In this document: piece after piece, positions 202 to 12,309 of the stretch
How positions within the stretch are numbered: the stretch's first letter is position 1
Layout of the letters: the number at the start of each line of letters is the position of its first letter
Source: Candidatus Eiseniibacteriota bacterium
GTDB lineage: Bacteria; Arandabacterota; Arandabacteria; Arandabacterales; Arandabacteraceae
Reading direction: 5' to 3'
NCBI GenBank assembly: GCA_043810925.1
Contig: JBDRNT010000162.1
Span: 1-51,807 of the forward strand
DNA length: 51,807 nt
Program-made: the position numbers and the translations under genes
Notes under the pieces: model-generated
What the model saw: only the letters and a program-made list of their open reading frames with translations
Databases searched by the model: none
What the model was told of the DNA's origin: nothing

Positions 202-3200
202 ATGGACTATACAATCGACAGCAAGATCGGCAGCGGGAGCTTCGGCGTTGTCTATAAGGCCCACGACAGATCCGGGCGCAGGTGCGCCGTCAAGCTGGTC
301 AAGCCGGGTGGCAGCGGTGCCAAGCTCGGTGCGAGCCTGTTGCGAACTCAATATGAACTGCTTTCATCTCTGACCCACGCGCGAATAGTCAGAGCGCTGG
401 ACTTTGACGCTGATTCATCGCATGGTCCGATGCTTGTGACGGAGATGCTTGACGGTGTCGATCTCAAGACCTACGTTGAAACCCGAGGAATCGGGGATTT
501 AGTCCTCATAACCGCCATGGTGCTTGATGGCCTCCGCTATCTGCACAGTCTCGGAAAAGTCCACGGTGATCTGAAGCCCGATAGCATCATCGTCAGCGAC
601 CTCAGCGGAAGTATCGAGGTGACTCTGATTGATGCCGGCTTCGACTACGGCAGGGGTTCGAAGCTGCCTACGCTGGAGGGGACGCTTGCTTATCTTGCCC
701 CCGAGATAACCCGTCACATGCCGGGTGATGGGCGAAGTGATCTCTACTCGCTGGGGGTCATACTCCATGAGATGCTGACGGGACGTTGTCCATTCGGTGG
801 GGCGGGTGAGGAGGAGATACTCGAAAATCACCTTGAGCTGGTGCCGGATGATCCGAGCAGTCTCAACCCTGATGTCGAAGTAGCCTGGGACGAGTTCGTG
901 GGCACGCTGCTTAAGAAGGAAGCTTTCTTAAGGTACAATGATGCCGTCCACGCCGGACTTGAGCTCGAGAGGCTGTTTGGGCCTTCCACGGTCTTTCTCG
1001 ATAACGTACTGCCGCCGGACTCCGCAGTATTGGTGGGCAGGGACGAAGAGATCAAGGGACTCAAGCACTGCCTGCTGCCATCCCGCGGTAAGGGTGTGAT
1101 TGTCCGGAGTCAGCGCGGGTGGGGTGTGAGTCGCGTGCTCCACGAGATCGAATGCCTTGCCAGGTTGAGCGGTTACAAGGTTCATACGGTCTCGCTTGAT
1201 GAGAAAATGCCGGGCTTTGCCCAGGTTGTCGATGCGATCCTTGGTGACGGGGCTGCGGCTGCAGGAACGCCAGCCGGCCTTGAACCCGGCTCAGGCGGCA
1301 GTGAAGCTGACTACCTCGATAGACTTCTTGGTGCATGTTATTCGAATCTCTCGCCGGACAGGAAGCACCTGCTTGCCATAGACCGAGGCGAGGTGATGGA
1401 TCAGCGCGAGCTGCGGATGCTCGGTACGATAGCGGCGCGGCTCGGCGATCTTGTGAGTGTGGTCATCGGATACCAGACCGACGAACCTCCCGCAGAGAAG
1501 GTTGCCGGTCATGAGATCTTTGAGACAGTCCGTCTCGAGCCGCTCGACCGCGGCACGCTGAACGTATTGCTGAAGAGCTACTTCGGTGTGAGTGCTGTGC
1601 CGGATGATCTTCTCGAAGAGCTGCATAGCGTCAGCGGTGGCAATCCCGATTTCGTAGGTCTTATGCTCAAGCATCTCTGGAGCACAGGGAGTGTGAGGAT
1701 TGAGGCGAAGCAGGGGGTGCTCGAGGTCGTCTGGGACAGAACGATGGGGATACCCAACACAGTCAGAGATGTAATGCAGGAGAGGTTGCGCGGCCTGAGT
1801 CCCCAGGCATCGGAAGTCCTGAAGTTCATCTGCGTGGGTGTAGGACAGATCGAGACAACCCTGCTGGCGGGTGTATCATCCGAAGGTAAGGTTGACCGGG
1901 CCCTGCGGGAGCTGATCGGGAGCGGTCTGGTTGAGGTGAGCGAAGACAAGACCTCAGTGCGCCTCAAGTGGAAGAATCTCACCGAACTCATACGTGACAC
2001 GATACCGCCTGAGACCCTGAAGGATGCAAGCCTCAGACTTGCATCCTTTATCGAAGCGAAACCCGGGAGTTGCCGTGATTACTTCGTGCTGGGAACACTC
2101 TATCTTGATGGCGGTGAGCGTGAACGTGCCTTTGCATATCTGGTTCAGGCCGGAGACTACTTCGCGGGCTTCTCGGCCCGGGACGCGATCTCGGCCTATG
2201 CCAAAGCCCTGCAGTGCGGCGCGGGTTCCGATCAGGTTGCGGAAGTCGAGGAAAAGATCGGGACTATCAAGCTGGCCCGGGGTGATGCGGCCGATGCGGC
2301 AGTCCACTTTGAACGAGCTGCGACCTCCAGACCTTCGGCAGCCAGGAAGATGGGCTGGGTCGCGGCCCTACGGGGCGCTCTGGCCGAGGCCGCCGAGATT
2401 CTGTCACGCTGTGAGACCGCAGCCGGCCAGGCAGGTGATGTCATCGAAACAGCAATGATACGTTCCGATCTGGGGCACGTCCGCTCTCTCGAGTCACGCA
2501 AGGACCTGGCCCTGGACCTGCTAAGACAAGCGCGGGCCGTCTTTATTGAGCAGGGCATGCCGGGCGAAGCCGGCAGGGCTGCGAACCGCATAGGCATCGC
2601 CGAGATGCGCTCGGCCAACTTCAAAGGGGCTGCGCGTGCCTGGATCGAGGCGATTGCGGATTTCGAACAGGCCGGCGACAGCAAGACCGCAGCAGTTTGT
2701 CTCATGAACCTGGGTCTGTGCCATCGCAAGCAGATGGACTTCGACCGTGCAGATGACGCCTTGAAGCGCGCCCTGGCGGTTTTCGATGAATTGAAGGCTC
2801 TTCACGAGCGGGCAAGCTGCTGTCAGAACTACGCGATCTTGATGCTTGACCTCGGAAATCTGTCGGGTGCCCTTGGGCTTGCCGGGGAGGCGCTGAGCCT
2901 TAACACATTGCTGGGCAGGAGTGCGGGGGTCGTGGCCCCGACAATCCTGCTGTCCGCGATAGCGATTGAGTCGGGCAACTGGGTGGAGGCGGAGAAGAGA
3001 CTTTCGGAACTGCTTGAGGACGGTCCTTTCCTTGATGACTATCACCTGGCCATGGTTAAGCGGTATCTCGCTGCAACGAGTGCTATGCGTGGAAAGTGTG
3101 GACAGGCCGTCGAGCTCATAGACGAAAGCCACGATCTGGCCTGCAAGGCGGATGACGCCGAGGGGCAGGGGCAGGCGATGCTCCAGAAGGGTGAAATACT

Positions 3201-5250
3201 TCTCAGGTGTGACAGGCCGAAGGAGGCTCTTCGGGTTGCCAGGAAGGCACTGGTAACACTGGGTCTTGCCTCGTCGCCGCTTCTGGCGGATGAGGCCCAG
3301 CGTGTGGTGGGTGAGGCGCTTGCGGTGTGCGGGGATACGGAGGCGGCGATAGCGGAGCTGATGCAGGCAAGGCAGGGATTCGAGGGCCTACCGGAATCTC
3401 TCCATATCGGACGTGTATTTCGGGCGCTGGCGCTGGCGCTTTATCGGGAAGGGGACCACGAGTCGTTCACCGAGTACATCAATCGTTCGATAGAGATCTT
3501 CAGAAACGCGAATGCACGTTATGACTACGCCGTGGCATTACTGCTCGGTGGCAGCGAGGCGAGCGACCGGGGAAATCTCTTGCAGGCAAGGCACTACCTG
3601 CTTGAGGCTGCGCGGATTCTCGAGACACTTGACATAAAGGACCTCCATGAAAGGGCGGTGTGTGAGATGGACAGGATCCCGGCGGGTGATCTGGAAACAC
3701 GGGCTGTCTCGTCACTCAGCAAGATATCCGAAACTCTAAGCTCCAGCCACGATCTTACGACCGTGCTCAACCTCGCGATGGATCTTGCAATCGAGTATCT
3801 GGGTGCGGAGAGAGGCGCTCTCATGCTCGAAGATGATGGGACCGGTGATCTCAAGACTTTTGTCGAGCGAAAAATGGACCGCGAGTCACTGCGTGAGGTG
3901 ATGGGAATCAGCGGGTCGATCGTCGAATCAGTCAGATCGTCGGGGGAGTCTGTGATAGAGGGTGACGCCACCAAGGATCCCAGATTCAAGGACAGCCAGA
4001 GTGTGAGGATTCATAACGTGATGTCGGTGATGTGTGTTCCGCTCACGATGGGCAGCAAGTTTCTGGGGATAATATATCTCGACAGCCGGGGTGTGCCGTC
4101 GAGCCTCTCCACGCTTGAGAAGGCGTTCGTTGAGGCGTTTGCCAACCAGGTTTCGCTCGCGATTGAAAATGCCAGACTTGTGGGGAAGCTGCATGAAGAT
4201 GTTGCCGACCTCAAGACCAGAGCCAGAGAGAAGTACAGCCACGCAAATATAATAGGACCGGGCAAGAAGATGCAGGAGGTTTTCAGGAAGGTTGAAATAG
4301 CAGCCGGCAGCGAGATAAGGGTCATGCTGACAGGCGAGAACGGTACGGGCAAGGAGGAGATAGCGCGGCTCATTCATGAACGAAGCCAGTGGAGCGATAA
4401 ACCGCTTGTCATCGTCAATTGCGCTGCGATTCACCATGATCTGATCGAGACCGAGCTCTTTGGAATAGAAGAGCGTGTGGCCACAGGCGTATCCTCCCGG
4501 TCGGGCATCTTCGAACGGGCAGACGGAGGTACAGTTTTCCTTGACGAGATAGGCGACATGCCGCTTCCGACCCAGGCAAGAGTCCTCCGGGTTCTGGACC
4601 GTCACGAGTTCGAGAGAGTCGGTGGATCGAAGGTACTCAAGGTCAAGATCCGGGTCGTGAGTGCAACAAACAAGGATCTCAATGAACTGATCGAGAAGGG
4701 CCTCTTCAGATCAGACCTCTATTTCAGGCTCCATGGAATGCGGATACACCTTCCCGCTCTGCGCGAGAGAATGGAAGACCTGCCTGCTCTGATCGATTAC
4801 TTTGTCGGGAAGTACGCGTCTCAGAATTCAAAATCCAGAATGTCGGTGTCCGACCAGGCACTCGAGATTCTCAAGACCTATATCTGGCCGGGAAATGTCC
4901 GGGAGCTGGAGAGGTGCATAGAGCATGCAGTTGTTGTTGCCGAAGGGACCCGGATCCGCCCCGAGCATTTTCCGATCGAGATCCACGAGAGCCTGAGAGC
5001 GGCCGATATCGACGACAGGATCCGCGGGGCTCGCAGCTCGACACTTCCCGAGGCCGTCCGGCGCCTCGAGCAAGATCTGATCGCGGTGGCGCTGGAGGAG
5101 TGTGGTGGGGTTAAGACACTGGCTGCGGAGCGGCTCGGCATACATGAAAGCACACTGAGGAAGAAGATGAAGATCCTGGGCATAGGCCCGGGTCACAATT
5201 CCGGCAATCAAACGCCCGCAAGCAGTCGTGAGAACGTACGAATCGTATAA
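202..5250 (+). CDS. Multidomain sigma54-dependent activator: Ser/Thr kinase-like, degenerate STAND/AAA, TPR repeats, GAF, sigma54 AAA+, Fis HTH
   Basis: Kinase motifs IGSGSFGVV, AVK, HGDLKP, GTLAYLAPE, SDLYSLG; LVGRDEE...GGNP STAND-like region; helical TPR-like repeats; GAF (SVMCVPL...LGIIYLDS); GENGTGKE, GGTVFLDEIG, FRSDLYFRL, WPGNVRELE; C-terminal AAERLGIHESTLRKKM. Confidence 0.92.
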   Translation: MDYTIDSKIGSGSFGVVYKAHDRSGRRCAVKLVKPGGSGAKLGASLLRTQYELLSSLTHARIVRALDFDADSSHGPMLVTEMLDGVDLKTYVETRGIGDLVLITAMVLDGLRYLHSLGKVHGDLKPDSIIVSDLSGSIEVTLIDAGFDYGRGSKLPTLEGTLAYLAPEITRHMPGDGRSDLYSLGVILHEMLTGRCPFGGAGEEEILENHLELVPDDPSSLNPDVEVAWDEFVGTLLKKEAFLRYNDAVHAGLELERLFGPSTVFLDNVLPPDSAVLVGRDEEIKGLKHCLLPSRGKGVIVRSQRGWGVSRVLHEIECLARLSGYKVHTVSLDEKMPGFAQVVDAILGDGAAAAGTPAGLEPGSGGSEADYLDRLLGACYSNLSPDRKHLLAIDRGEVMDQRELRMLGTIAARLGDLVSVVIGYQTDEPPAEKVAGHEIFETVRLEPLDRGTLNVLLKSYFGVSAVPDDLLEELHSVSGGNPDFVGLMLKHLWSTGSVRIEAKQGVLEVVWDRTMGIPNTVRDVMQERLRGLSPQASEVLKFICVGVGQIETTLLAGVSSEGKVDRALRELIGSGLVEVSEDKTSVRLKWKNLTELIRDTIPPETLKDASLRLASFIEAKPGSCRDYFVLGTLYLDGGERERAFAYLVQAGDYFAGFSARDAISAYAKALQCGAGSDQVAEVEEKIGTIKLARGDAADAAVHFERAATSRPSAARKMGWVAALRGALAEAAEILSRCETAAGQAGDVIETAMIRSDLGHVRSLESRKDLALDLLRQARAVFIEQGMPGEAGRAANRIGIAEMRSANFKGAARAWIEAIADFEQAGDSKTAAVCLMNLGLCHRKQMDFDRADDALKRALAVFDELKALHERASCCQNYAILMLDLGNLSGALGLAGEALSLNTLLGRSAGVVAPTILLSAIAIESGNWVEAEKRLSELLEDGPFLDDYHLAMVKRYLAATSAMRGKCGQAVELIDESHDLACKADDAEGQGQAMLQKGEILLRCDRPKEALRVARKALVTLGLASSPLLADEAQRVVGEALAVCGDTEAAIAELMQARQGFEGLPESLHIGRVFRALALALYREGDHESFTEYINRSIEIFRNANARYDYAVALLLGGSEASDRGNLLQARHYLLEAARILETLDIKDLHERAVCEMDRIPAGDLETRAVSSLSKISETLSSSHDLTTVLNLAMDLAIEYLGAERGALMLEDDGTGDLKTFVERKMDRESLREVMGISGSIVESVRSSGESVIEGDATKDPRFKDSQSVRIHNVMSVMCVPLTMGSKFLGIIYLDSRGVPSSLSTLEKAFVEAFANQVSLAIENARLVGKLHEDVADLKTRAREKYSHANIIGPGKKMQEVFRKVEIAAGSEIRVMLTGENGTGKEEIARLIHERSQWSDKPLVIVNCAAIHHDLIETELFGIEERVATGVSSRSGIFERADGGTVFLDEIGDMPLPTQARVLRVLDRHEFERVGGSKVLKVKIRVVSATNKDLNELIEKGLFRSDLYFRLHGMRIHLPALRERMEDLPALIDYFVGKYASQNSKSRMSVSDQALEILKTYIWPGNVRELERCIEHAVVVAEGTRIRPEHFPIEIHESLRAADIDDRIRGARSSTLPEAVRRLEQDLIAVALEECGGVKTLAAERLGIHESTLRKKMKILGIGPGHNSGNQTPASSRENVRIV

Positions 5251-5258
5251 TCATACGA
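5243..5258. promoter_or_regulatory. Palindromic site TCGTA-N6-TACGA (candidate enhancer, distal copy)
   Basis: TCGTA TAATCA TACGA within the longer inverted repeat AATCGTAT..ATACGATT; preceded by GTACG like the second copy. Confidence 0.5.
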
Positions 5259-5406
5259 TTGGGTGATCATGAATTCCCACCTGCGGGTCCTTTCTGCCAT
5301 ATCGTTCTAACCTCAATCAAACCAATTGGAAATCAGCATTCATACTGAGATCGACTGCCTGCCTATCCTGTATCGATCCTACTGGAGGTCTGAAGAAAGT
5401 ACGCTG

Positions 5407-5422
5407 TCGTACATATATACGA
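5407..5422. promoter_or_regulatory. Palindromic site TCGTA-N6-TACGA (candidate enhancer, proximal copy)
   Basis: TCGTA CATATA TACGA, about 100 nt upstream of the -24 element, a typical bEBP UAS position. Confidence 0.55.
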
Positions 5423-5476
5423 GCGAGTCGTTTGGTTTCAGTTGAACTCAGATTCATCTTATGTTAAGCTTATAAA

Positions 5477-5489
5477 TAGCAAATAGTTA
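5477..5489 (+). promoter_or_regulatory. IHF-like binding site
   Basis: TAGCAA-ATAG-TTA, one mismatch to WATCAANNNNTTR, in an AT-rich tract between the candidate UAS and the sigma54 promoter. Confidence 0.4.
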
Positions 5490-5521
5490 CAGGGCCAACA
5501 AATTCTACGAACTTGTAGATA

Positions 5522-5537
5522 CGGAACAGGCCTTGCA
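5522..5537 (+). promoter_or_regulatory. sigma54 (-24/-12) promoter of the small peptide gene
   Basis: CGGAACAGGCCTTGCA = GG-N10-GC with TTGCA at -12. Confidence 0.7.
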
Positions 5538-5591
5538 GTAGAGGCCAGAGGGGCGAATGCGATCGGTGAGGGGAAGGGAGGAGGCTTAACG

Positions 5592-5804
5592 ATGCGGACA
5601 AAGCGTTTGCATTGGGCAGTGATCGCGCTCTTTGGCATTTTGGTACTGACTATGATGTCACCGTGCTTTGCGAGCGGTGAGGATGAAGAACCTGGAGATC
5701 CGTATGATCTTCCACCGGGAAGTGACTCCCTTGACCCGACGCCGCGCACTCTTAGCGATTTCTGGATGATCGTGATGGCCATGGCATTTCAGTTGGCGCT
5801 CTGA
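5592..5804 (+). CDS. 70-aa micro-protein with signal peptide, acidic Pro-rich core and hydrophobic C-terminus
   Basis: Strong RBS GGAGGAGG; basic N-terminus MRTKR, hydrophobic stretch, probable cleavage after CFA; sigma54 promoter upstream. Confidence 0.75.
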   Translation: MRTKRLHWAVIALFGILVLTMMSPCFASGEDEEPGDPYDLPPGSDSLDPTPRTLSDFWMIVMAMAFQLAL

Positions 5805-5846
5805 AGAGTGGTTTGTTTGTCTGAGCCCAGGGGCTAAGGTGCCGGC

Positions 5847-6596
5847 GTGGGCGAGGGGGGGGTGGTGATTGTGGTAACAATGAGTGAAGATCCGACTATG
5901 AAGCCTGTTGTTCGACTTGTGATCATGGCCGCGGCCTGTCATGCCAATGTCCTGCTTGTGGGTGAAAGCGGGGTCGGCAAGACTTATCTGGCACGACAGA
6001 TACACGAGGCTTCCACCTCGTGCCCGGGGGATTTCCGCGTTCTCTTCTGTGCCCCCGACGCGGCCACCGAAATGTCGACTGACAGACTGATGGACAAGCT
6101 TCTGTCGTTGGAACACGAAGGTGGAACAATCTATTTAAAGAACATCGATGTTCTGAGTGCCATAGGTCAGCGGAAACTGCTGGGCTACCTGGATTCAAGA
6201 GAGCGCAGGATGAAAGCAGGCTGTCTCTCGAGCGGGGGGTTTGCTCGACTGATCTTCTCCAGCGGGCGAGACCTGAGACTGGAGGCTGCGGCGGGAAGGT
6301 TTATGAGGCAACTCTACCTGAGGGCCTCAGTGATAACCATAGCCGTTCCCCCCTTAAGACAGCGAGAGGCAGACATAGTTAGCCTGGCAAGACACTTTGT
6401 CAGTCTGTATTCGGACCAGGAACGCAAAGGTCTGAAGGGCCTCAGCGATGATGCGGAGTGCATGCTGACAAGGGTTTCCTGGGAGGGCAACATCCACGAG
6501 CTCAAGAACACGATGAACCGGGCTGTGGTGTTCGCCGAAGATGGTCAGGTTTTAAGTGCCGTCCATCTGGAGGGTGTGCTCCAGCAGGTCGGTTGA
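5847..6596 (+). CDS. Stand-alone degenerate sigma54-activator-type AAA+ domain (no GAFTGA, no HTH); true start probably 5865-5880
   Basis: GESGVGKT Walker A, GRFMRQLYLR, PPLRQR, WEGNIHELKN; Walker B altered to IYLKNID. Confidence 0.8.
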   Translation: MGEGGVVIVVTMSEDPTMKPVVRLVIMAAACHANVLLVGESGVGKTYLARQIHEASTSCPGDFRVLFCAPDAATEMSTDRLMDKLLSLEHEGGTIYLKNIDVLSAIGQRKLLGYLDSRERRMKAGCLSSGGFARLIFSSGRDLRLEAAAGRFMRQLYLRASVITIAVPPLRQREADIVSLARHFVSLYSDQERKGLKGLSDDAECMLTRVSWEGNIHELKNTMNRAVVFAEDGQVLSAVHLEGVLQQVG

Positions 6597-6626
6597 CGGC
6601 CGGCACGGAGGCAGAAGCTAATCTAT

Positions 6627-7019
6627 ATGTTAAGAAGAGACCTGATTGAGGAGTCACTGCATTACTTGATGATCAATGTGCTCGTCGACAAGCTCGAGAA
6701 GGACGGTTTCACAGTACGGGCCGATCACGTGGGTGGTTTAAGGGATAGGCCGGAGTCCATCGAGGGGTATGTCCCTGACATAGAGGCCAAAAGGGGTGCC
6801 GAGGTACAACTGATCGAAGTGGAGACCGAGTCCACCCTGGACTCGGAGGAAGCTCGCGAGCAGCTGGCCAAACTGACCTCGGCATCCCGCGGCAAAGTCT
6901 ATCTGGCCGTGCCCCATGATTGCCTTGATAGGGCAAGGGGTGTCAGAGATGACCTCAAGGCCGGTGTCGTCATCCTGCCATGTTATCCCTTTGTCAGGTA
7001 CGTCGGGACGCCCAAATAG
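6627..7019 (+). CDS. Small hypothetical protein with a PD-(D/E)xK nuclease-like motif
   Basis: LEKDGFTV...YVPDIEAKRG...LIEVET pattern; 130 aa. Confidence 0.65.
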   Translation: MLRRDLIEESLHYLMINVLVDKLEKDGFTVRADHVGGLRDRPESIEGYVPDIEAKRGAEVQLIEVETESTLDSEEAREQLAKLTSASRGKVYLAVPHDCLDRARGVRDDLKAGVVILPCYPFVRYVGTPK

Positions 7020-7029
7020 GACCGGCGTA

Positions 7030-7072
7030 TGCCATGATGGCAAGTCCGGACTCCTGCCCTGCCATACAGGCA
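7030..7072. promoter_or_regulatory. Paired palindromes (candidate bEBP enhancer for dnaK)
   Basis: TGCCATGATGGCA (7030-7042) and TGCCATACAGGCA (7060-7072), 30 nt apart, about 105-150 nt upstream of a sigma54 promoter. Confidence 0.55.
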
Positions 7073-7175
7073 TAAGTCCCGCGCTCCACGCGCCTCATCA
7101 TACCGGTTGATGCGTCATCGTAACTCTTTATAAGTCAATTGATAAGCATGGAATCTCCCGACTGTTTACCTCCAA

Positions 7176-7191
7176 TGGCATGCCGCTTGCT
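7176..7191 (+). promoter_or_regulatory. sigma54 promoter of dnaK
   Basis: TGGCATGCCGCTTGCT, near-consensus TGGCAC-N5-TTGCW. Confidence 0.8.
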
Positions 7192-7293
7192 GTATAAGCG
7201 CTCGGACAGGTGAATAGCATGTGAGAAAACATACCGAGTGAAGTGCAGGCCCTTCATGGGATTGCCACTCTGCTCACAAGGGGGGAGATTCAA

Positions 7294-9201
7294 ATGGGAA
7301 AGATCATAGGAATTGACCTGGGAACAACCAATTCGTGTGTGGCAGTGATGGAAGGCGGGGAGCCGGTTATCGTTGCCAACCAGGAAGGTTCGAGGGTGAC
7401 GCCCTCGGTAGTTGCTTTCACCAAGGCGGGAGAGCGGCTTGTCGGGTTGACTGCCAAGCGGCAGGCGATCACAAATCCGGCCAACACCGTTTACTCCATC
7501 AAACGGTTCATGGGCCGGAAATACGACGAGGTGCGCGGTGAGATCGGCGAGGTCCCGTACACGGTCGTAAAGGGTCCAAATGGAGATGCGCGGGTAAAGG
7601 TCGGTGATAAAGAGTATTCACCGCCCGAGATCTCGGCGATGATACTACTCAAGATGAAGCAGACGGCCGAGGCCTATCTTGGCGAGAAGGTGACTGATGT
7701 CGTCGTAACAGTTCCGGCCTACTTCAACGATAGCCAGAGACAGGCGACCAAGGATGCCGGTAAGGTTGCCGGTCTCAACGTGAAGAGGATCATCAACGAG
7801 CCTACCGCAGCATCCCTGGGGTACGGTCTGGGCAAGAAGAAGGACGAGAGGATAGCCGTGTTCGACCTCGGTGGGGGCACATTCGATATATCGATTCTCG
7901 AGATCAGCGACGGCGTCTTCGAAGTCAAGTCGACCAATGGTGACACGCATCTCGGCGGTGACGACTTCGACCAGCGAGTGATCGACTGGCTTGCAGACCA
8001 GTTTCAGACGGAACAGGGTATAGATCTCAGAAACGACCCGATGGCGCTTCAGCGGCTCAAGGAGGCGGCGGAACGTGCCAAGTGTGAGCTTTCCTCGGCA
8101 CTCGAGACGGCGATCAACCTGCCGTTCATAACTGCTGATGCCAGTGGGCCGAAACATATGAACATCACGCTCACGAGATCGAAGCTCGAACAGCTTGTGG
8201 ACGAGCTGATCGAGAGAACCGTGGGACCCTGCCGGTCGGCGCTTGCGGATGCCAAGCTGGAAGCCTCTGCCATCGACGAGGTGGTTCTTGTCGGCGGACA
8301 GACGCGAATGCCGAAGGTCCAGGAAGTCGTGAAAAAGATGTTCGGCCGGGAACCGCACAAGGGCGTGAATCCCGACGAAGTAGTAGCCGCCGGCGCAGCG
8401 ATACAGGGCGGAGTGCTTGGTGGTGAGGTGAGGGACGTTCTTCTGCTCGACGTAACACCGCTTTCACTGGGTATCGAGACCAAGGGTGGGGTCTTTACAA
8501 AGATCATCGAGCGGAACACCACTATCCCGACCAAGAAGTCAGAGATCTTCACCACGGCGGAAGACAGCCAGACGGCGGTTGAGGTTCATGTCTTACAGGG
8601 TGAGCGAGAGCTTGCGACGGCGAACAAGTCCGTAGGCAAGTTCCACTTGACCGGGATCCCGCCGGCTCCGAGGAACGTACCTCAGATAGAGGTTGCCTTC
8701 GACATCGATGCCAATGGTATACTCAACGTGTCCGCCAAGGACATGGCTACGGGCAAGGCGCAGTCCATCAGGATAGAGGCGTCAAGCGGATTGACCCAGC
8801 AGGATATCGACAAGATGGTCCGTGACGCGGAAATGCACCAGGCTGATGACAGGCGCAGGAAGGAAGAGGTAGAGGCCAGGAACAAGGCGGACCAGCTCGT
8901 CTATGAGACGGAGAAGAACCTCAAAGAGATGGGCGACAAGGTTTCCCCCGACGGCAGGGCCAGGATCGAGGCCGGAATCGGTCGGGTCAAAGAAGCACTT
9001 GATGGAAGCGACGTCGATGAGGTAAAATCGAGTACGGAAGCTCTGGTTGGCCTGTGGAGTGACGTAGCCAAGACATTGTACGAGAAAGCGGCTACCGGAG
9101 CGAGTACTGCCGGTCAGACTGGCGGTTCGGCTGGTGCGGGGGAGAGTTCCGCGCAGGAACGGGAAGAGGCTGTCGAGGCCGACTACGAAGTCGTTGACTA
9201 G
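7294..9201 (+). CDS. dnaK: Molecular chaperone DnaK (Hsp70)
   Basis: [31 protein letters not shown]-terminal ADYEVVD; start moved to the ATG after the G-rich RBS. Confidence 0.99.
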
Positions 9202-9610: not shown

Positions 9611-10237
9611 TTACCTGGACCCTGTTGCCTCCAGTACGAGCGGCAGATCGATCCATGATTCCACCGGGGTGTAGCCCAGTTTTGCCGCCTCGAATCGGAA
9701 TCTCCAGGCACTCTCAAGCACTCGTTCCCTCACTTCAGGATTTTCCAGTGTGTCTTCTATGATTACCCTCCGGGGCAGTCCCTTTGCTGAAACGAGGATT
9801 CTGACATTGACCTCTATGGTCGAGATCCCGAGGTCCTCAAGGGTCGGGGGTACGATAAAGCGGGGGACCGGCGGGAAGAACTGAGGTTCAACATTGCCGG
9901 CGGGTATGTCGGCCCGTGCGATACCGGCACCCTCCGGCGAGCCACCGGGGGTCGCGGGTTCTCGAGTCGCCGTCGGCGCCGGGACCTCCTCCACGATCTC
10001 AAGCACTGCGCGGTCCACGGTCTCGGGCGTGCGTTCCACCTCAATGGGGATAACCTGCATCACCATATCGGAAAGACCGGACCAGGGATCCCTGGTTCTG
10101 CCCTCTCTCATGGCGGGCATCTCCCGGGGAAAGAAGATATGCAGGAACTGAGCGGGTAGAAGCACAAGACCGGCGTGTAACAAGATAGATATGATCACCC
10201 ACCTGCGAAGCGACGGATGTGTTCTCTTAACGGTCAT
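9611..10237 (-). CDS. TonB C-terminal-like membrane-anchored protein
   Basis: N-terminal TM (ISILLHAGLV), Pro/Glu-rich linker, C-terminal VRILVSAKG...WRFRFEAAK..G.PV.SW. Confidence 0.65.
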   Translation of the reverse strand: MTVKRTHPSLRRWVIISILLHAGLVLLPAQFLHIFFPREMPAMREGRTRDPWSGLSDMVMQVIPIEVERTPETVDRAVLEIVEEVPAPTATREPATPGGSPEGAGIARADIPAGNVEPQFFPPVPRFIVPPTLEDLGISTIEVNVRILVSAKGLPRRVIIEDTLENPEVRERVLESAWRFRFEAAKLGYTPVESWIDLPLVLEATGSR

Positions 10238-12309
10238 TGCTCAATCTCGGACACGATCTTAAAGCCGGTCGTGGCAGTTGTCATCCGCCCGCTTAAGGTA
10301 TCGGTCACATCGATCACGATGTCATAGTCGCCGGTCGAAAGGGAAGAGAGATCGACCCCGAGCACTTCGTGTCTCCGCGAACCCCTGCTCCTGAGCTCAT
10401 ACTTGCTCCAGATCGAGGTGAGGCCGCCGGACGTTTCATCATCCGCGGTTCCGGTCAGGGCCTTGAGAAGCCGCATGAACCGCGGCTCGACCTTTTCCCT
10501 CCCGACGATCCTGTAACTGACTTCGGCCTCACCCGTGCCGCGGGCGTCGGTCAAGAGGTTATAAATGCTGAATGCCAGATAGGCCTTGCCCCGTCCGAGA
10601 TAGACATGGGAGGGATTCGGCGGCCCGTCTGATGCGAACCGGATCTCTATGTCGCTGATCTCCAGGCTGTCTCCAAAACCGCGGGCCGTGACTGCTCTGT
10701 TGGTGAAGCCGACGGCACCCGTGGTCTTCGATTCCATTGACACCGCGGCAAGCGAGCCTCCAGGCGGGATCTGGACGGTGAGGCTTCCGATCAGCGGGTA
10801 CTCGGTCTGGTAAAGCGCGCTGGAATCCGCGCGCAGCTCGGCCGTGAACCTTGTGCGCGTGACATCCCCGTATATGCTGTCAAGCACCGCGACCTCGATG
10901 TCGAAATCACCAACCGGCCATTCGTAAAGAGGTTCATACTTGACGCCTCTTGTGTCGCATCCGTATATGATCTTCAGACCCGCTCTTCCCATGTCGTCCA
11001 CGACGTTCAGGGCATCGAGCACGACTCTCATCCGCTTCTTTATCTGGGATTCATAGATCTCGGGTACGTTCTTCTCGAGGTAGGCATAGACATACGCACT
11101 CCAGTCCTTCTCGTATGGGAATCTGAAATCACCGTTCATGAAGGTGTCCTCGAAGTTAAGCGAGAAACCGCTATACTGCCATTTCCACCTCCGCCTCGCC
11201 TGCCGGATCGGTCTGGCCCTGTACCGGCTCACGGGATCGCGCGAGTCGAAGTTCTCCCAGCCGTCCACCCCGGCCATGGCACTACTCATTTGGGCCGGAC
11301 GGGGCATTGATGTCTCATTAGCAAAGACATCCGACCCGAAGGGATCGTAGTACCAGGCAAGCGGCCTGCCGTAACGAATGTAGACCTCGCCACGCGCCGT
11401 CTCCGATCCCGTCTTGCCCAGTCTCGGGACCGTGAAGTGGAAGTCCGCGAATCCAACTCTTGCGAGATGCTCGACAAGCCTTTCGTTTACTTCCGTTGCG
11501 GGGTTGGGGTCCCGCTTCTTCCAGAGCATCCGGTTGGCTGATTTCATGTCACCGGTGAGCTGTGTTGCCGCAGCCTCCTTCAGCTCCTCCGGGGTAGCCA
11601 CAAGCTCCACCGACATGTACCGGTTGCGACGTGGTTCGTCCATGACACCGAGCGCCCTGGTGAAGGTCTCCGAGGAGGCTTCGATGTCCCTGATCTCGGA
11701 AAGCGCCATGGCCAGGAGCAGCAGATCGTCGACATTGAGACTGTCCTCGGGAAACGACTCAAGCAGGATGATTGATGAGTCGGGTCTGCCGAGATCAAAA
11801 TAGCATTGGGCCAGGTGCCTGCGCGCGCCCGGATAGGCCGGATGAGACTCCTCCACGAGCTGAAACTCATCTCGTGCATTCAAAAACGAGCTACGCTGCC
11901 ACTCGTCGACGCCGCGCTCAAGGTAGGCTTCACCCAATCTGAGATGCGCAAATCCGTTCTCCGGGTCCCATTCGAGAAGGGTCTTGAGTTCCTTCACCCC
12001 GTTGTTCCAGTAAGTGCTTTCGAAGTACATCTCCGCAAGGAGCAGCCGGTAATCCGGATTTCGACGATCGTGTTTGACGGCGAGCTTCATTTGCTTCACA
12101 GCGGCCGATCTTCCACTGGCGGTGCCTTCGGCAAAGTAGATCGCCGCCAGCTTGACATAGAGCATGGATGAGTCAGGATAGGTCCAGATCAGTTCCTTAA
12201 GAGTCCGCTCAGTGTGCACTTCACCACTCAGGGAGCGGCCGGCAGGGAGCAGTCCGGACAGGAACAGGACAACGGACAGCCCCGTCGCACAAAACCAGAC
12301 TTGCTTCAA
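10234..12309 (-). CDS. GWxTD-domain TPR protein (signal peptide)
   Basis: TPR-like N-terminal half; W.KRDPNPATEVNERLVEHLARV and GSETARGEVYIRYGRP. Confidence 0.8.
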   Translation of the reverse strand: MKQVWFCATGLSVVLFLSGLLPAGRSLSGEVHTERTLKELIWTYPDSSMLYVKLAAIYFAEGTASGRSAAVKQMKLAVKHDRRNPDYRLLLAEMYFESTYWNNGVKELKTLLEWDPENGFAHLRLGEAYLERGVDEWQRSSFLNARDEFQLVEESHPAYPGARRHLAQCYFDLGRPDSSIILLESFPEDSLNVDDLLLLAMALSEIRDIEASSETFTRALGVMDEPRRNRYMSVELVATPEELKEAAATQLTGDMKSANRMLWKKRDPNPATEVNERLVEHLARVGFADFHFTVPRLGKTGSETARGEVYIRYGRPLAWYYDPFGSDVFANETSMPRPAQMSSAMAGVDGWENFDSRDPVSRYRARPIRQARRRWKWQYSGFSLNFEDTFMNGDFRFPYEKDWSAYVYAYLEKNVPEIYESQIKKRMRVVLDALNVVDDMGRAGLKIIYGCDTRGVKYEPLYEWPVGDFDIEVAVLDSIYGDVTRTRFTAELRADSSALYQTEYPLIGSLTVQIPPGGSLAAVSMESKTTGAVGFTNRAVTARGFGDSLEISDIEIRFASDGPPNPSHVYLGRGKAYLAFSIYNLLTDARGTGEAEVSYRIVGREKVEPRFMRLLKALTGTADDETSGGLTSIWSKYELRSRGSRRHEVLGVDLSSLSTGDYDIVIDVTDTLSGRMTTATTGFKIVSEIEQ

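Follow-up and report, generated by a model that had tools for sequence, protein, structure and literature searches.

Bacterial enhancer-binding proteins (bEBPs) of the NifA, NorR and PspF-pspA type carry a AAA+ domain followed by a Fis-type helix-turn-helix (HTH) and act at a -24/-12 promoter through an IHF-like site and through palindromic enhancers that lie 100-300 nt upstream. The GAFTGA motif of sigma54 activators is treated as invariant and essential in two papers (PMC12316311; PMC3467059), and replacement of any of its positions in PspF is described there as abolishing open-complex formation (PMC3467059). In FleQ/FleT of Rhodobacter (Cereibacter) sphaeroides and in HrpR/HrpS, a second, AAA+-only subunit is made under the promoter of the first activator, and partners of this type are believed to form mixed rings, according to PMC10084136. 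RRNPP systems (PlcR/PapR, NprR/NprX and Rgg/SHP) comprise a cytoplasmic repeat-domain regulator and, adjacent to it, a small exported-peptide gene under the regulator's own control. In this study, we describe a locus that can be compared with each of these systems. It lies on contig JBDRNT010000162.1, positions 1-51,807, hereafter the window (the whole stretch of DNA analysed, 51,807 nt), from a genome of 3.85 Mb, and consists of a giant activator gene, a 70-aa open reading frame (ORF) for a micro-protein, a AAA+ ORF, a 130-aa ORF and dnaK, in this order and all on the + strand.

We favour, with somewhat less than even confidence, the reading that the genes upstream of dnaK form a dedicated self-tuned sigma54 cassette tied to proteostasis. 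What the analysis shows is the gene content and order, the conservation of motifs, the uniqueness of both enhancer types, the folds of the proteins and the motifs that they have lost. In this reading, the cassette is specific to one uncultured order and vertically inherited there. No published description of such a composition was found in a literature search, the supplementary predicted-regulon lists of PMC12316311 lying outside its reach; this agrees with the first-pass annotation of the same DNA, which had pointed to no described system so composed.

Gene order, promoters and enhancers

The gene order is retained in all 14 related genome loci and in all 13 metagenome contigs found in a scan with the 130-aa alignment, in both cases as far as each contig extends. 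When the order's 15 other genomes were searched with the 70-aa protein, 14 gave a match at E <= 0.005 and the remaining one is only 57% complete; in 25 more distant genomes no match was better than E = 0.07. The 130-aa protein was detected in 16 of the 18 genomes of the phylum that were searched, both misses belonging to the other family (f3). The cassette is flanked by purA and an aminotransferase gene upstream and by dnaK downstream, and the upstream pair argues for a stable chromosomal site. A profile search of the genome contigs with the AAA+ alignment returned only generic activators of 32-39% identity and no orthologues; no NCBIfam equivalog reached its cut-off for the cassette proteins, and PADLOC found no specific system, only generic domain matches. 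The first-pass annotation had placed its features in a single orientation along the locus, and the ORFs, the Pfam matches and the promoter elements confirmed both orientation and positions.

Two TCGTA-N6-TACGA palindromes, as first proposed, follow the activator gene (no strand assigned). The distal copy, TCGTATAATCATACGA (5243-5258), overlaps the activator stop codon, and about 117 nt separate the proximal copy, TCGTACATATATACGA (5407-5422), from the -24 GG further downstream. Of the 15 loci, 14 match the proximal palindrome exactly and one (L022) has a single mismatch; its distance to the start codon is 170-188 nt. A distal copy was recognized in 11 of the 14 loci that extend far enough upstream, once with N7 spacing. 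The extended pattern TCGTAY-N4-RTACGA occurs only twice in the 3.85 Mb genome (0.66 expected), both times at the cassette, and 29 sites with one mismatch are scattered across the genome. Since the enhancer is exclusive to the cassette, the activator appears to serve one promoter. Between enhancer and promoter, conserved columns of the 15-locus alignment outline an IHF-like block, TTAA...CAA-N4-TTA (5461-5490, + strand), and the genome holds four genes of the HU/IHF family. The predicted sigma54 promoter P1, CGGAACAGGCCTTGCA (5522-5537, + strand), has its -24 GG at 5523-5524 and its -12 GC at 5535-5536; a GG-N10-GC promoter with TTGC lies 38-63 nt ahead of the small ORF in 15/15 loci, and rpoN is present in the genome. 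The palindrome, the IHF-like site, the -24/-12 elements and the ribosome site are all footprinted in every one of the 15 loci, beyond what chance would produce, which bears out the IHF-like site and the GG-N10-GC promoter of the first-pass annotation. By its sequence, the system thus has the parts expected of a bEBP, namely a C-terminal HTH, an enhancer, a -24/-12 promoter and rpoN. That annotation had also proposed a search for a sigma54 motif and a small signal-peptide ORF downstream of homologues, whose absence would have told against it; as both accompany every homologue examined, no such case was encountered. A further motif, GCGATCGG (5559-5566, + strand; consensus 'gcGatCgg'), was recognized in the leader from the 15-locus alignment, where each position is common to at least 10 of the 15 loci and three positions to at least 13; it sits at about +11 to +18 of the predicted 5' leader of the small-ORF transcript.

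The dnaK beside the cassette (7294-9201, + strand; HSP70, 881.8 bits; start at MGKIIG) has regulatory sites of its own. A second enhancer type, TGCCA-N3-(T/A)GGCA, is represented by TGCCATGATGGCA (7030-7042) and TGCCATACAGGCA (7060-7072), which together span 7030-7072 with no strand assigned, and this is the only pair of TGCC-N5-GGCA sites within 80 nt in the genome. The promoter-proximal palindrome (consensus cTGcCA.at.GGCA) is retained in 14/14 loci, and the second, upstream one is recognizable in most but not all of them. A predicted sigma54 promoter, P2, TGGCATGCCGCTTGCT (7176-7191, + strand), agrees with 10-12 of 12 consensus positions in all 14 loci, including those with a peptidase insertion. 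The combined enhancer and promoter pattern was found at the cassette-adjacent dnaK in 10 of the 16 genomes with a cassette, with two stray matches elsewhere; in two genomes without a cassette, where dnaK follows hsp20, no such promoter was seen before dnaK as judged by eye. No terminator-like hairpin was found between 7019 and 7294, so that transcripts from P1 may also reach dnaK.

Several further observations concern dnaK and the surroundings of the cassette. A second dnaK, 64% identical to the window copy, belongs to an hrcA-grpE-dnaK-dnaJ operon (contig C89; locus L162 4469-9148), and three genomes of 93-99% completeness yielded no dnaK other than the one beside the cassette. An hsp20 gene (contig C37, about 50 986, minus strand; L164 2432-2640) has a sigma54 promoter, TGGCACACCCATTGCA, with a similar palindrome, TGCCATTATGGCA, 152 nt upstream, which hints at a small sigma54 heat-shock regulon with the dnaK-type enhancer. 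Predicted sigma54 control of chaperones is reported in PMC12316311 to be enriched in Bacteroidota and Planctomycetota. In locus L014, a 619-aa DUF11-repeat gene on the opposite strand (4834-6693) is inserted between the activator gene and the enhancers, which remain with the promoter. The sister family f2 has a gene for a peptidase of the clostripain family (Peptidase_C11) between the 130-aa gene and dnaK (L019 7087-8463; L131 9654-10934), and the dnaK promoter and palindromes still adjoin dnaK. Past dnaK in the window, two convergent genes on the minus strand (9611-12309) encode a 208-aa protein, for which no Pfam match was found, and a 691-aa tetratricopeptide repeat (TPR) protein.

Proteins of the cassette

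The giant activator (1682 aa; 202-5250, + strand) consists of a Ser/Thr kinase domain (residues 3-241; Pfam Pkinase, 117.4 bits), a nucleotide-binding oligomerization domain (NOD) of the signal transduction ATPase with numerous domains (STAND) type (about 262-640), a MalT-like TPR arm (about 640-1175, with TPR_12 around 791-862), a GAF domain (1184-1321), a sigma54-type AAA+ domain including AAA_lid_14 (1350-1599; Sigma54_activat, PF00158, at 1350-1515 with 192.9 bits) and a Fis-type HTH (1619-1657; Pfam HTH_8). Pfam, a fold model of the STAND region and motif conservation together uphold the kinase-STAND-TPR-GAF-AAA+-HTH architecture originally assigned to it. The kinase looks active from its sequence, as 17 orthologues agree in all of its catalytic residues: G10, G12, G15, K31, H121-G-D123, D144 (as DAG) and A166-P-E168. 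Because the AAA_16 match was below the cut-off (19.4 bits), the STAND region was examined structurally; an AlphaFold model of residues 262-640, built from 13 orthologues (predicted local distance difference test score, pLDDT, 78.6), was matched by Foldseek to MalT (8bob_C, TMq 0.65), Apaf-1 (0.61) and the STAND-TPR protein 6mfv (0.59), and also to CED-4 and Avs3. The model thus has the nucleotide-binding, helical and winged-helix domains (NBD-HD-WHD) of a STAND protein, and in the activator a repeat sensor arm follows. The P-loop, with the consensus GERGxGVxR across orthologues, has Val in place of Lys and departs from the Walker A pattern GxxxxGK[ST]. The repeat region of the orthologues matches PF17874. 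The whole architecture was found in only eight other clusters, whose proteins are about 1660-1690 aa long; among more distant relatives, AAA_16 and PF17874 TPRs are fused to cyclase, GGDEF or kinase domains, and the best NCBIfam matches, NifA and NorR, were both under the cut-off.

The AAA+ domain has the motifs of a sigma54-interacting AAA+ protein, with Walker A as GENGTGKE and Walker B as VFLDEIG, but its L1 loop (4474-4491, + strand) reads R-V-A-T-G-V in place of G-A-F-T-G-A. In the context ERVATGV, residues V1426, A1427, T1428 and G1429 are invariant in 17/17 orthologues. A canonical loop, G[AS][FY]T[GD]x, is present in 16 of the 18 sigma54-domain genes examined in the genome (five weak or fragmentary matches were left out); the two that lack it are the activator and a second activator-like gene on contig C99 (30139-31011), whose GAFTGA and Walker B are both degenerate. 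The designation as a sigma54 activator, made from the sequence alone, is therefore upheld by the AAA+ domain, the HTH, the enhancers, the promoter and rpoN, and put in question by the activator's own loop. A paralogue of 1032 aa with a TPR-GAF-AAA+-HTH arrangement, no kinase and a GAFTDA loop is encoded at 57829-60780 of contig C37, with a sigma54-like site just 3' of it, at 61014.

The AAA+ ORF (249 aa; 5847-6596, + strand; likely start at ATG 5880, not 5847) encodes a paralogue of sigma54 activators that, by Pfam, is made up of Sigma54_activat and AAA_lid_14 only, with no N-terminal domain and no HTH. Walker A is intact, and in all 15 sequences L1 is deleted and Walker B lost. Alignment to ZraR (1ojl) and NtrC1 shows the FGHEKGAFTGA stretch to be wholly missing, as the first-pass description of a GAFTGA-less ORF had it; Walker B reads IYLKNID, with K-N (elsewhere R-G or E-D) replacing D-E, and the sensor region reads GNIHELKN versus GNVRELEN, with His for the sensor Arg. 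The ratio of nonsynonymous to synonymous substitution (dN/dS) is 0.11-0.13, and this strong purifying selection means that the gene is not a decaying pseudogene. The role as a decoy or damper put forward in the first-pass annotation would be plausible. Stand-alone AAA+-only proteins of 192-337 aa also occur elsewhere, in several Atlas clusters of 50-483 members.

The micro-protein gene (5592-5804, + strand) begins 341 nt downstream of the activator gene. With GGAGG 8 nt upstream of its start, a G-rich Shine-Dalgarno-like stretch before the chosen start in every one of the 15 loci and a signal-peptide-like N-terminus, it corresponds to the 70-aa signal-peptide ORF with a strong ribosome-binding site that had been predicted, and it is intact in 15/15 loci. 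By inspection, K/R residues and a hydrophobic core can be recognized in the N-terminus, and the expected -1 position is occupied by an Ala (A27) that does not vary. The predicted mature form has an acidic proline-rich stretch (PGDP, LPPG, L[DE]PTP), followed by a hydrophobic C-terminal 13-mer that is the most conserved part of the protein and identical across genera. As a hydrophobic C-terminal helix is retained in the predicted mature form, the peptide of about 43 aa, predicted to be exported through Sec, probably stays membrane-associated. The family comprises 51 clusters among 5.8 billion proteins, all of 51-100 aa, in which no Pfam match and no functional name other than one evident mislabel were found. 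Its dN/dS is 0.22-0.83 versus 0.06-0.17 for its neighbours. A lipoprotein was considered and rejected, since the Cys at -3 is absent in 3/15 sequences and no lipobox precedes it; a PEP-CTERM-type sorting signal was likewise dismissed, since a basic tail is wanting (K/R in the last 15 residues in 0/52 sequences) and NCBIfam gave no match.

Between the small ORF and the AAA+ ORF, an 18-locus alignment revealed a conserved element, GAGCCCAGGGGC...TGCCGGCG...GAGGGGGGGG (5823-5862, + strand), which terminates in a G8 run (5855-5862) just ahead of the AAA+ start. Its core, CCCAGGGGC (5826-5834), is exact in 16 of the 18 loci and carries one substitution in each of the other two. The possibility that it is an N-terminal extension of the AAA+ ORF was discarded: its frame relative to that ORF differs among loci, and the element is therefore non-coding. 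Within 5765-5862 of the window, conservation at the level of nucleotides also covers the final 13 codons of the small ORF, which hardly differ among eight loci of different genera. The conservation of codons and element suggests that the small ORF and the AAA+ ORF may be coupled in their translation at the RNA level.

The 130-aa protein (6627-7019, + strand) was modelled with a pLDDT of 93, and its best PDB matches are XisH (2inb/2okf, TM 0.55-0.58) and Hjc (0.42), so that it can be assigned, on the model and the family alignment, a restriction-endonuclease-like XisH/Hjc fold of the PD-(D/E)xK type. Its conserved residues are E9, H12, D33-H34, P50-D51 and E64-x-E66-T67, together with a clade-specific ILPCYPFVRYVG tail. 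The fold of the PD-(D/E)xK-like ORF named in the first-pass annotation is accordingly recovered, whereas the motif is not: the Lys position of D...(D/E)-x-K is occupied by E66 (Arg in 2/15), followed by T67, and E-x-E-T without lysine runs through the whole family of about 330 members. Relatives number 333 at E <= 1e-3 among 1.84 billion representatives, with only three at E <= 1e-30. The Pfam AHJR-like score is below the cut-off (19.8 bits), which relatives pass, and the protein is acidic, with an isoelectric point of 4.6-6.1.

A possible self-tuned circuit and its rivals

In the reading that we favour, a cytoplasmic multi-input activator, with kinase, STAND/TPR, GAF, AAA+ and HTH parts, would bind the TCGTAY-N4-RTACGA enhancers, and an IHF-type bend would bring it to P1, the sole sigma54 promoter that it would serve, and which it would open. 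P1 would transcribe the genes for the micro-protein, the AAA+ paralogue and the XisH/Hjc-fold protein. Of these products, the first would be exported through Sec as a peptide of about 43 aa and probably become associated with the membrane, while the AAA+ paralogue would bind ATP without hydrolysing it and be incapable of contacting sigma54. It could enter or cap the activator ring and tune its output, most likely by damping; in a related in-vitro experiment described in PMC3467059, an equimolar mix of wild-type PspF and the L1 variant G83pBpa gave about 55% of wild-type output. The cassette directly adjoins a predicted sigma54-dependent dnaK with its own enhancer pair, into which P1 transcripts may extend. 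That the activator binds the enhancers and activates P1, that the rings are mixed, that the micro-protein is exported and that the cassette is linked to stress are inferences from the features described above.

Several points weigh against this proposal. The VATGV loop is the main doubt on the whole sigma54 scheme: given that L1 substitutions in PspF abolish activation (PMC3467059), the capacity of the activator to activate sigma54 is uncertain, and its Walker B is altered to FLNEIG in family f2. The AAA+ paralogue is only presumed to bind the activator; with roughly 17 activators encoded in the genome, its target may be a different one. The dnaK enhancers have no assigned binding protein, and no role is attributed to the micro-protein. 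RNA-library traces were limited to two short identical contigs, covering 5653-5829 and 7228-7400, for which DNA carry-over is possible; among the sequencing runs, the best contained 16% of the sampled words, in short contigs only.

The effect of the AAA+ product could be either damping or a FleT-like requirement at the dnaK promoter. The latter would make the locus a two-tier cascade, in which the activator alone fires P1 and a mixed ring with the AAA+-only product fires the dnaK promoter from the second enhancer pair, perhaps with the nuclease-fold protein as an adaptor. This matches FleQ and FleT as presented in PMC10084136, where FleQ alone activates PfleT, both proteins are required at other promoters, and FleT has neither N-terminal nor HTH domains. 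It would also suit the uniqueness of the dnaK enhancer pair, the association of the dnaK pattern with cassette genomes and the fact that no activator gene stands beside dnaK. However, a subunit that has lost the L1 loop and the Walker B acid would add neither a sigma54 contact nor hydrolysis, the acidity of the nuclease-fold protein is unlike that of a typical DNA binder, and the hsp20 site on contig C37 would be equally well explained by a separate heat-shock activator. We regard such a cascade as rather unlikely, while giving it more weight than any other rival. A bolder scheme, which we hold to be unlikely, would turn the losses themselves into a natural 'doped-ring' switch: a VATGV activator is mixed with an L1-less, hydrolysis-dead subunit, the proportion sets the output, the signal passes from the mixed ring to dnaK, perhaps with guidance from the nuclease-fold protein, and the micro-protein reports export or envelope status to the STAND/TPR sensor. 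If true, proteostasis would here be governed by a sigma54-based circuit gated by a peptide, in contrast to control by HrcA or sigma32.

Other rivals assign the small ORF or the sensor a different part. The first-pass annotation had proposed an RRNPP-like feedback circuit. In such a circuit, the exported micro-protein would be processed to a signal that comes back into the cell and is bound by the activator, through its TPR arm or a different sensor domain. In every case the small ORF comes first after the activator's promoter, a gene for a small exported pro-peptide (the signal peptide being judged by inspection) stands beside the putative receptor in 15/15 loci, and the micro-protein evolves faster than its neighbours. 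In SHP pheromones, a hydrophobic C-terminal tail comes after an acidic residue, and the end of the micro-protein resembles this. When slowly evolving parts are controlled for, micro-protein divergence has a partial r of 0.58 with TPR and NOD versus 0.23 with the kinase; it tracks the AAA+ paralogue almost equally (partial r 0.52, 13 loci), and raw distance correlations with each part of the activator are 0.60-0.87 (13 loci). Because relatedness and shared fast rates explain these correlations, we judge the covariation uninformative. The claim of a receptor of this class did not stand, in that the repeats are by match (PF17874) and fold a MalT-type STAND arm, not an RRNPP-type TPR receptor, and the locus holds no peptide importer or processing gene. 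In addition, different genera have the same 13-mer but diverge in the TPR region (mean p-distance 0.53), the reverse of what co-diversification of pherotypes would give. A complex prediction run without controls, which paired residues 600-1175 of the TPR arm (17 rows) with residues 28-70 of the micro-protein (15 rows), gave a score of 0.01, the mark being 0.32, and speaks neither for nor against binding. The idea is neither supported nor contradicted outright, and its odds are low. Still less probable, in our estimate, is a role of the small ORF mainly in cis, as a leader or secretion monitor whose translation, and possibly whose export status, would open an mRNA structure and so set AAA+ translation. 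The near-identical last 13 codons and the conserved element after the stop would fit, as would a synonymous divergence of the small ORF below that of the AAA+ and nuclease-fold genes in all four computable pairs; in the eight-locus clade, a predicted 8-bp helix pairs the last codons with the element, and a predicted outer helix extends to the G-rich stretch before the AAA+ start (-20.7 kcal/mol). SecM, MifM and VemP share the layout of a signal peptide and a conserved extreme C-terminus with the small ORF, which is not known to match an arrest motif. Covariation supports only 2/24 pairs of the eight-locus helix, RNAalifold over 18 loci gave no meaningful consensus structure at the junction (-0.99 kcal/mol), Rfam returned 0 matches at E <= 1 over 5100-7400, and PGDP and L[DE]PTP are retained as protein across clades with differing nucleotides. 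Least probable of all is a STAND-type conflict or cell-suicide module, in which the kinase-STAND-TPR sensor induces a nuclease effector, joined in one family by a caspase-like protease. The modelled resemblance of the sensor to Avs3, CED-4 and Apaf-1, the likeness of the kinase domain to PADLOC defence kinases, the placement of the nuclease-fold protein near Pfam AHJR-like and the C11 peptidase of family f2 all speak in its favour; yet the cassette occurs once per genome and always in the same place, between purA and dnaK, in every genome of the order, with no mobile genes, the PADLOC matches are to generic domains, the catalytic Lys of the nuclease motif is missing in the whole 130-aa family, and the STAND P-loop is degenerate.

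Relation to known systems

If the sigma54 cassette that we favour is correct, its significance lies in several of its parts. A conserved VATGV loop beside a conserved sigma54 promoter would mean either that a different loop can engage sigma54 or that the AAA+ protein has another job there. A AAA+ paralogue that is kept by purifying selection although it has no loop and no hydrolysis may be a natural poison or tuner of rings, for which the precedent among bEBPs is in-vitro mixing only. The cassette also puts dnaK under predicted sigma54 control with private enhancers in a little-known phylum, and adds a family of 70-aa predicted exported proteins with an invariant hydrophobic tail. The host is uncultured, a practical limit that makes heterologous work necessary.

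Like NifA and NorR, the activator has a GAF sensor before its AAA+ domain; unlike classical bEBPs, it has about 1180 extra N-terminal residues (kinase, STAND and TPR), VATGV as its L1 and a single genomic target. As in FleT, the AAA+ paralogue has the sigma54-type AAA+ domain and lid but neither an N-terminal domain nor an HTH; it differs in lacking L1, the Walker B acid and the sensor arginine, FleT being taken here from its published description. Because of these losses, it is not a working co-activator subunit in the usual sense. The feedback proposed for the cassette would resemble PspF-PspA and HrpS-HrpV, where a product of the target operon acts back on the AAA+ domain of the activator. 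A further likeness lies in the small membrane proteins of the target operon, which are PspB, PspC and PspG in the Psp system. No match to the Psp family was found in the cassette, and the proposed damper is a AAA+ paralogue, unlike the ESCRT-III-like PspA or HrpV.

The likeness to RRNPP systems extends to the adjacency of regulator and peptide gene; the cassette departs from them in that its repeats belong to a STAND arm, its output runs through sigma54, it is found outside the Firmicutes and its locus has no importer, and also in that the peptide retains a hydrophobic helix and has an invariant rather than a pherotype-variable core. The NBD-HD-WHD fold is shared with MalT, PknK-type kinases and AAA_16-TPR adenylate cyclases, but the output of the activator is a sigma54 AAA+/HTH module and its Walker A lysine is absent, unlike in MalT-type STAND proteins. 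The 130-aa protein resembles XisH (2inb, 2okf) and Hjc in its fold, N-terminal Glu, PD motif and acidic residue on the next strand, and is set apart by E-x-E-T, the clade-specific C-terminal PCYPF motif and the absence of a recombinase gene nearby. The logic of the circuit is of a known kind; the parts list and the loop variant are new.

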